Of a stretch of DNA of 64,000 nucleotides, positions 31,685 through 31,859 are shown in pieces. The notes beneath the pieces were generated by a model. The model was not told where the DNA came from and did not search any database. It worked only from the letters and a program-made list of their open reading frames with translations. The DNA is taken from the NCBI RefSeq assembly GCF_988243305.1, contig NZ_OZ547136.1; one strand, written 5' to 3'. A program made the position numbers and the translations under genes. How positions within the stretch are numbered: the stretch's first letter is position 1; every line of letters begins with the position of its first letter.

Positions 31685-31859
31685 ATCTGGCATTTGCACT
31701 GAATGCCGGATGCGGCGTAAACGCCTTATCCGGCCTACGATTCCCATTATTTCAATGGATTACAGCAAAGTAGGCCAGATAAGACGCACCAGCGTCGCAT
31801 CTGGCATTTGCACTGAATGCCAGATGCGGCGTAAACGTCTTATACAGCCTACGATTCCC
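31685..31859. repeat. BIME-like REP cluster between convergent rcsB and rcsC
   Basis: Two direct copies of an ~61-bp unit containing a REP palindrome (31685-31745 and 31799-31859, ~90% identical) flank an inverted REP (GTAGGCCAGATAAGACGCACCAGCGTCGCATCTGGC). The second copy overlaps the rcsC stop codon. Confidence 0.8.

Follow-up and report, generated by a model that had tools for sequence, protein, structure and literature searches.

A REP162 allele between the convergent genes rcsB and rcsC of Escherichia coli: a probable bidirectional 3′-end array of BIME-2 type that has lost 33 bp

Analysis of a 64,000-nucleotide stretch of DNA (contig NZ_OZ547136.1 of assembly GCF_988243305.1; hereafter the window) indicated that the spacer between rcsB and rcsC is very probably an allele of the REP162 element, that is, a BIME-2-type array shared by the two genes as a bidirectional 3′ end, variable in its number of units among strains, and shortened by 33 bp in this strain. 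The REP family has been studied since the 1980s. REP162 itself, the BIME-2 family, the variation of unit number among strains, the bidirectional use of such elements as 3′ ends, and the supply of TAG stop codons by GTAG REPs have all been described already. Novelty is limited to the 33-bp deletion, a private allele, and to the series of spacer lengths as set out here (85, 166, 199, and 313 bp). The finding has little importance beyond annotation; the allelic series is a possible natural test bed in which REP number and the distance of a REP from a stop codon could be set against a convergent pair of signalling genes.

Organization of the rcsB–rcsC spacer

The genes rcsB (plus strand) and rcsC (minus strand) converge, and 166 bp separate their ends in the window. 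The features of the two gene ends and of the spacer are as follows.

31680–31682, plus strand: rcsB stop codon TAA; the translation ends in ...LSPADKD*, and the same protein is RcsB in E. coli records
31684–31691, plus strand: remnant head arm of a Z2 REP, CATCTGGC, at the deletion junction; the rest of this REP was lost in the 33-bp deletion
31692–31704, plus strand: head-to-head S linker, copy 1, ATTTGCACTGAAT, 13 nt between head arms
31705–31738, plus strand: Y-type REP 1, intact, GCCGGATGCGGCGTAAACGCCTTATCCGGCCTAC, matching the Y consensus at 33 of 34 positions (local alignment)
31739–31769, either strand: tail-to-tail linker of 31 nt that joins two 114-bp units; locus-specific, its first 15 nt resembling the rcsC 3′ end
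31770–31805, minus strand: Z2-type REP, inverted relative to the Y units, matching the Z2 consensus at 33 of 36 positions; GTAG at 31770–31773 on the plus strand
31773–31849, minus strand: entire BIME-2 unit (Y, S linker, Z2), read in the sense of the putative rcsC 3′ UTR; match to Rfam RF02564 (naRNA4)
31806–31818, plus strand: head-to-head S linker, copy 2, ATTTGCACTGAAT, with the same 13 nt as copy 1
31819–31852, plus strand: Y-type REP 2, diverged, matching the Y consensus at 29 of 34 positions; CTAC tail at 31849–31852
31849–31851, minus strand: rcsC stop codon TAG (complement of CTA), inside the conserved GTAG of the REP; the translation ends in ...RVRKSRES*
31849–34698, minus strand: rcsC coding sequence of 949 codons, from the open reading frame list; homologous E. 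coli records annotate RcsC

A repeat search of the window returned one direct-repeat family with two copies here (31684–31753 and 31798–31867), each of 70 nt, 90% identical, and 114 bp apart from start to start. A match of 70 nt at 90% identity is far above the chance expectation. Inverted repeats found in the same search connected all REP units of the spacer. The two 61-bp units that the initial annotation had described (31685–31745 and 31799–31859) lie inside the 70-nt copies, and the four positions at which they vary are exactly those it had listed. The second copy runs on through the final five rcsC codons, and the CTAC tail of the second Y REP (31849–31852) covers the rcsC stop codon, as had been claimed for the second unit. 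Tandem Repeats Finder reported no array in the spacer, because only approximately 1.6 copies with two differing linkers are present.

REPs are imperfect palindromes 30–40 nt in length. The REP units were classified by alignment with Y, Z1, and Z2 consensus sequences that we take to be the standard ones; our Z2 consensus agrees with that of the RF02564 model. Our Y consensus is in accord with that given in PMC12306157. This alignment was run as a check that could have refuted the earlier assignment to a REP/BIME cluster, and the Y and Z2 units aligned without failure. Each direct-repeat copy contains a Y REP, and the inverted Z2 REP (31770–31805) lies between them, which is the arrangement proposed at the outset. 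The conserved tetranucleotide at the foot of REPs was present as CTAC at 31735–31738 and 31849–31852 and as GTAG at 31770–31773. Across the window the REP core motif occurred six times versus 0.6 expected by chance, and a further REP cluster was found at about 19810–19935. The RF02564 covariance model matched 31773–31849 on the minus strand over its full length (1–77) with 64.3 bits, above the gathering score of 59.5, which further bears out the assignment. The other unit (31666–31735, minus strand) reached 47.7 bits, under that score. The Z2 REP of the window aligned with the second hairpin of the model.

The order of the units, Y(+), Z2(−), Y(+), is an alternation of y and z2, and in K-12 and SBF45 the Z2/Y alternation is complete. 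BIME-2 elements are defined as y and z2 REPs joined head to head by a short S linker and occurring in tandem copies (Ton-Hoang et al., 2012, PMC3333891), and their copy number differs among strains (PMC3333891). Judged by its sequence, the rcsB–rcsC element is a textbook BIME-2.

Allelic variation and the 33-bp deletion

The region was found in all but one E. coli genome, at 95–99% identity and always between rcsB and rcsC. The nearest strains share 99.7% identity with the window over 12 kb beside this region, and the source is therefore an ordinary E. coli lineage. Comparison of the spacer length across strains, as the initial annotation had suggested, revealed that it is variable.

EC29 and ST2747: spacer of 85 bp, a single Z2-S-Y unit
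Window strain: spacer of 166 bp, two units minus the first Z2
K-12, LR-64-1, and A_5: spacer of 199 bp, Z2-S-Y, linker, Z2-S-Y
SBF45: spacer of 313 bp, three units

The spacers with one, two, and three units (85, 199, and 313 bp) fit 85 + n × 114 bp exactly. The 31-nt inner linker was present at one place per genome in 4,435 of 5,426 complete E. coli genomes (82%), and at two or three places in a few E. coli records. Two or more units are therefore present in most strains, and the linker, being single in these genomes, is specific to this locus and no dispersed motif.

The number of tandem units, which ranges from one to three among strains, most likely changes by recombination or slippage. 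A plain 114-bp duplication of the single-unit allele was rejected, as manual sequence comparison demonstrated that the right half of the inner linker is not reproduced; the unit would therefore have an older origin, or gene conversion may have been involved. The coexistence of alleles with one, two, and three units in E. coli suggests a loose constraint on the exact structure.

When the window was aligned with A_5, K-12, EC29, and ST2747, a gap of 33 nt was observed in the window. Its allele is an A_5-type two-unit allele minus these 33 nt, plus single-base differences in the aligned stretch. The lost 33 bp correspond to the first Z2 hairpin, which lies between CA(T/C)CTG direct repeats. Such repeats on either side of a lost hairpin appear to be the classic signature of slippage across a hairpin, and the deletion would also be compatible with TnpA-REP cleavage at C^T sites. 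A search for the deletion junction in 5,426 complete E. coli genomes gave no match (0/5,426), nor did a search of metagenome contigs. We regard the deletion as a private allele, an assembly artefact being less likely. Partly deleted alleles occur in other Escherichia lineages too.

The rcsC 3′ end and the spacer in other genera

An RcsB-based scan of genome contigs from other Enterobacteriaceae returned 80 loci, 76 of them with the rcsC end kept. In many genera, including Lelliottia, Pseudocitrobacter, and Atlantibacter, the spacer measures 36–60 bp and contains one hairpin between an A-run and a T-run, an arrangement that has the appearance of a bidirectional intrinsic terminator. Salmonella and Citrobacter carry their own pair of tail-to-tail REPs between rcsB and rcsC, and Escherichia species carry the Y/Z2 BIME. 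According to this comparison of genera, REP arrays have therefore repeatedly replaced the terminator in the convergent spacer.

The same scan bears on the earlier claim that the C-terminus of RcsC was shaped by the repeat. Among the 76 rcsC ends, RcsC everywhere has the terminus ...RVRK(S/T)R followed by one or two further residues. In Escherichia the codons are AAA TCG CGG GAA (TCG), and these recur as nucleotides in Kluyvera, Pseudocitrobacter, and Trabulsiella genomes that have no REP, as follows.

Kluyvera, without a REP: rcsC ends in TCG CGG GAA TAA
Pseudocitrobacter and Trabulsiella, without a REP: rcsC ends in GAG TCG TAA, and once in TCG TAG G

In every Escherichia allele examined, this position reads TCG TAG G. 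Given their recurrence in REP-less genera, the terminal rcsC codons are ancestral, and it is therefore the repeat unit that carries copied rcsC sequence, not the reverse. The inner linker GATTCCCATTATTTC, with GATTCCC...ATTTC, matches the rcsC end GATTCCCGCGATTTC (31853–31867) at 12 of 15 positions. The part of this end that agrees with the REP consensus CTACGA is limited to the rcsC stop codon and perhaps the last Ser codon. On the 76 rcsC ends, a C-terminus of RcsC made by the repeat was accordingly rejected, with the stop codon and the REP tail excepted; what stands of the claim is the overlap of these two.

With regard to the origin of the stop codon, donation of TAG by the GTAG of the REP is favoured by Salmonella and Citrobacter, which have no final Ser and use TAA, and a pre-existing rcsC TAG is favoured by the Pseudocitrobacter TCG TAG without a REP. 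In the Escherichia clade genome L016, the body of the last Y REP has been lost and CCTAC with the TAG stop has been kept. GTAG termini of REPs often supply TAG stops to flanking ORFs (Di Nocera et al., 2013, PMC3733652).

Predicted folding and transcript ends

For both strands of the spacer, the predicted folding was far stronger than that of shuffled sequence (z −5.7 and −7.4). The hairpin of Y REP 1 was calculated at −20.9 kcal/mol (z −4.25). Y REP 2 alone reached −8.5 kcal/mol (z −0.17), no better than shuffled sequence, and its lower stem is opened by three substitutions; the folding model suggests that the stop-proximal Y hairpin has decayed in the lineage of the window. Together, Y REP 2 and the Z2 REP formed a long hairpin of −47.6 kcal/mol in the rcsC sense and −51.2 kcal/mol in the rcsB sense. 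In the predicted fold the rcsC UAG is base-paired at the foot of this long Y-S-Z2 hairpin. At the other end of the spacer, a further hairpin was identified.

31684–31712, plus strand: new 12-bp hairpin across S linker 1, in which the remnant Z2 head arm pairs with the Y head arm

The fold of 31680–31745 (66 nt), which includes this 12-bp stem, had an MFE of −23.2 kcal/mol. Measured from the rcsB stop codon, the first stem begins at a distance of 1 nt in the window (12-bp hairpin) and of 10 nt in K-12 (Z2 hairpin).

REPs located 15 nt or less from a stop codon have been reported to stall ribosomes and to reduce translation (Liang, Rudd and Deutscher, 2015, as cited in PMC12306157). Both genes have a REP or hairpin within this distance, rcsC with its UAG inside GUAG (0 nt) and rcsB with a stem 1 nt after UAA. 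By analogy, ribosome stalling and reduced translation would be predicted for rcsC and for rcsB.

In an intrinsic-terminator scan of the spacer, none of the hairpins, REP stems included, had a T-run behind it; the one weak consensus match of the scan was no better than those in shuffled sequence. A classical Rho-independent terminator was rejected, as no GC-rich hairpin is directly followed by a U-run. With no hairpin and T-run in the spacer, the REP hairpins are therefore its sole candidate 3′-end determinants.

Proposed function and alternative explanations

The rcsB–rcsC element of K-12 has been named REP162 and assigned to the class “Convergent” (Harris et al., 2026, supplement). Both Z2 hairpins of REP162 are among the bidirectional termination sites listed for rcsB, rcsD, and rcsC: the hairpin at 2316832–2316874 (−25.3 kcal/mol) in log and stationary phase, and the hairpin at 2316942–2316985 (−21.9 kcal/mol) in stationary phase (Harris et al., 2026). 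The same study reported that approximately 60% of REPs lie between convergent genes and that REP325 terminates transcription in a partly Rho-dependent manner and stabilises the upstream mRNA. It has also been found that stem-loops, REPs included, set the steady-state 3′ ends of Rho-dependent transcripts (Dar and Sorek, 2018).

By extension from the family and from the K-12 data, the REP162 array would be read from both sides and serve as a shared 3′ UTR. At its GC-rich stem-loops RNA polymerase would pause or come to a halt although no U-run follows, probably aided by Rho, and the same stem-loops may also block 3′-to-5′ exonucleases. Through the two effects together, the rcsB and rcsC mRNAs would obtain defined and protected 3′ ends, and convergent read-through would be limited. 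The array would stand in for the simple bidirectional intrinsic terminator of other enterobacterial genera, and the window strain would have lost the first Z2 hairpin through the 33-bp deletion between CATCTG-type direct repeats.

The initial annotation had further stated that mosaics of this kind bind gyrase and can stabilise upstream mRNA. Gyrase binding and cleavage are known from the literature for some BIME-2 elements, mostly in y units. Gyrase binding and protection of mRNA 3′ ends are plausible for the rcsB–rcsC cluster on the strength of the family literature. The Topo-seq supplementary text contains no mention of rcsB, rcsC, or REP162, and the RepRanger supplement contains no mention of rcsB or rcsC.

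An explanation that is possible, although clearly less probable than a shared 3′-end array, is that the cluster consists of repeat DNA of a selfish or neutral kind, which RAYT (TnpA-REP) has moved or rearranged, and that it lies in a permissive convergent spacer without a selected function. The overlap with the stop codon would then be an accident of insertion beside a pre-existing TCG TAG/TAA, and the Pseudocitrobacter genome with TCG TAG G and no REP indicates that the stop need not be derived from a REP. The variation from one to three units among strains, the partly deleted alleles of other Escherichia lineages, and the degenerate stop-proximal Y hairpin of the window are all consistent with this explanation. 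TnpA-REP cleaves at C^T within linkers and beside iREPs and can recombine BIMEs in vitro (PMC3333891), and both end points of the deletion lie in CATC^TG. However, at least one strong hairpin has been kept in every Escherichia allele examined, bidirectional termination sites have been mapped to the K-12 hairpins, and in a spacer without another terminator the hairpins are the only candidates for determining 3′ ends. Neutral or selfish DNA is therefore a serious alternative for the fine structure, namely the copy number and the decayed hairpin, but it does not easily explain the constant presence of a hairpin and the mapped 3′ ends of K-12.

The IHF binding suggested by the initial annotation would make the spacer an IHF-binding RIB/RIP (BIME-1-like) element, with IHF bending the 31-nt tail-to-tail linker. 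This is improbable. The sequence TTTCAATGGATTA at 31750–31762 is one mismatch from WATCAANNNNTTR, and TTTCAATATATTA occupies the same position in L016, but cores with one mismatch occur in the window at the chance level (58 found versus 49 ± 8 expected). In addition, a BIME-1 consists of z1 and y in a single copy with a conserved L linker (PMC3333891), whereas the window has z2 in tandem units, and its inverted REP aligns best with Z2, not with Z1. IHF binding belongs to the BIME-1 type, with Z1 and the long L linker. Given a core-consensus match at the chance level in a Y/Z2 element, it was rejected as a supported claim.

It is very unlikely that the two units of 61–70 nt arose as two independent REP insertions without local duplication of a 114-bp unit. 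REPs are dispersed and of high copy number; among the matches listed for a 651-nt query, the median was 27 places in each E. coli genome. Against this background, though, the 13-nt S linkers are identical in both units, the repeat extends beyond the REP into sequence resembling the rcsC 3′ end (12 of 15 positions), the tail-to-tail linker is found at a single locus, and the alleles form the exact series 85 + n × 114 bp.

Finally, a reading of 31773–31849 (minus strand) as a naRNA4-like nucleoid-associated sRNA, which with HU would bridge cruciform DNA and condense the chromosome, is the least probable of all: it accords with the RF02564 score of 64.3 versus 59.5 bits and with the role described for REP325 units, also Y-linker-Z2 (Qian et al., 2015), but the RF02564 model is simply a BIME-2 unit, so that any Y/Z2 pair scores well, the linker of the window is unlike that of the model, no promoter-like site was detected in the region, and REP325/naRNA4 gave no measurable nucleoid compaction or REP–REP contacts in a re-examination (Harris et al., 2026) whose authors include the senior author of Qian et al. 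(2015). An sRNA function of the naRNA4 kind was rejected because RF02564 represents a BIME-2 unit and because the nucleoid role is contested.

Within the preferred reading of the spacer as a shared 3′-end array, it is a separate question whether the deletion matters. We consider it unlikely that the 33-bp deletion is functionally meaningful and that the RcsB:RcsC ratio is adjusted, as if by a natural dial, through the alleles with one, two, and three units. The idea arises because the stronger mapped site of K-12 has been lost and a 12-bp hairpin has been gained 1 nt past the rcsB stop codon. If it were true, the deletion could shift the formation of the rcsB 3′ end, read-through into rcsC, and the termination of RcsB translation, and the number of units would tune the Rcs phosphorelay, which governs envelope stress and capsule, by moving its set point.

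Comparison with known systems

Compared with the BIME-2 family, the rcsB–rcsC element has in common the alternation of y and z2, the head-to-head pairs joined by S linkers, the tandem repetition, and the number of units that varies among strains. It differs in that the window allele starts with a truncated unit and in that its 31-nt linker was found at one locus only, at the sensitivity of blastn. REP325/naRNA4 (RF02564) likewise has a 77-nt Y-linker-Z2 unit with two hairpins in a 3′ UTR; however, REP325 comprises six units between tandem genes (yjdM and yjdN), whereas the window has 1.5–2 units between convergent genes and a different linker.

As in the GTAG REPs described by Di Nocera et al. 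(2013), the rcsC UAG lies inside the GUAG of the REP, at a distance of 0 nt. The short distance to the stop codon is also shared with the class of REPs studied by Liang, Rudd and Deutscher (2015), for which stalling is reported; for RcsC and RcsB, stalling and tmRNA tagging are predictions.

The closest known system is REP162 of K-12, which occupies the same locus between the same flanking genes; its Y/Z2 units, its S linkers, and its 31-nt inner linker are also shared, and in both elements the CTAC of the last Y REP holds the rcsC stop codon. Four REPs lie in the 199 bp of K-12, whereas the window has three in 166 bp and is without the first Z2, the stronger of the bidirectional termination sites listed for K-12. 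The last Y REP of the window carries four substitutions, and RcsC ends in ...RES in the window and in ...RDS in K-12.

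Hairpin-bounded deletions at the rcsB–rcsC locus

The REP162-type array between rcsB and rcsC was found to be partially deleted in other Escherichia genomes, and the deletions differed by lineage. In Escherichia sp. E1V33 (L016), the last Y REP has lost its body but retained CCTAC and the TAG stop, whereas E. coli SCPM-O-B-8794 (L011) carries a single hybrid hairpin produced by fusion of the first Z2 and Y REPs. Hairpin-bounded deletion is thus a recurrent event at this locus.

In the window allele, the 33-bp deletion that removed the first Z2 hairpin has made it possible for the end codons of rcsB, AAGTCCGGCAGATAAAGAC, to pair with the remnant arm CATCTGGCA (both within 31661–31692). 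Consequently, Infernal aligned a pseudo-Z2 hairpin at this position: the Rfam naRNA4 model RF02564 matched 31666–31735 on the minus strand with 47.7 bits (gathering score, 59.5 bits), placing the rcsB stop codon in the loop of the hairpin. The same final codons also resemble the REP tail arm AAGTAGGCCAGATAAGACG (80%; repeat family D2). Given that the RcsB protein is 97–100% conserved across genera, this likeness is probably coincidental.

Other features of the window

The following features were also recorded in the window:

2983–3056, plus strand: tRNA (Rfam, 54.9 bits, above the gathering score)
19810–19935: second REP cluster, flanked by an ORF end at approximately 19789 and a 548-codon ORF (19939–21585, minus strand)
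27938–28031, plus strand: MicF antisense RNA, upstream of rcsD (Rfam, 116.8 bits, above the gathering score)
31710–31871, plus strand: mechanically called ORF of 53 codons, wholly inside the REP array
31752–31883, minus strand: mechanically called ORF of 43 codons, wholly inside the REP array

The MicF and tRNA matches are both expected in this region of E. coli, and the two ORFs within the array are almost certainly spurious. The second REP cluster, which lies apart from the rcsB–rcsC array, contains a Y-like REP in inverted orientation together with a Z2-like one that is truncated (GCCTGATGCGACGCTGACGCGTCTTATCTGC), as well as a long palindrome that is almost perfect (ATACGCCACATCCGGCATACCATGCCGGATGTGGC). 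This palindrome matches the REP161 sequence, which is listed as eco/mqo, convergent, and a bidirectional terminator (Harris et al., 2026, supplement).

Comparison of the spacer between genera and strains

The rcsB–rcsC spacers of Salmonella enterica subsp. arizonae and diarizonae (L022 and L025) and of several Citrobacter loci contain an unrelated tail-to-tail REP pair of the Salmonella/Citrobacter type, in which the second REP ends approximately 4–5 nt from the rcsC TAA stop. The site thus appears to have been occupied independently by a different REP family.

In the window, the Y REP near the rcsC stop (31819–31852) is more Z2-like through four substitutions (GCCAGATG and ACGTCTTAT), which weaken its own hairpin and improve pairing with the adjacent inverted Z2 REP. 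This substitution pattern is lineage-specific: the window has it in common with E. coli strains A_5 and LR-64-1 but not with K-12.
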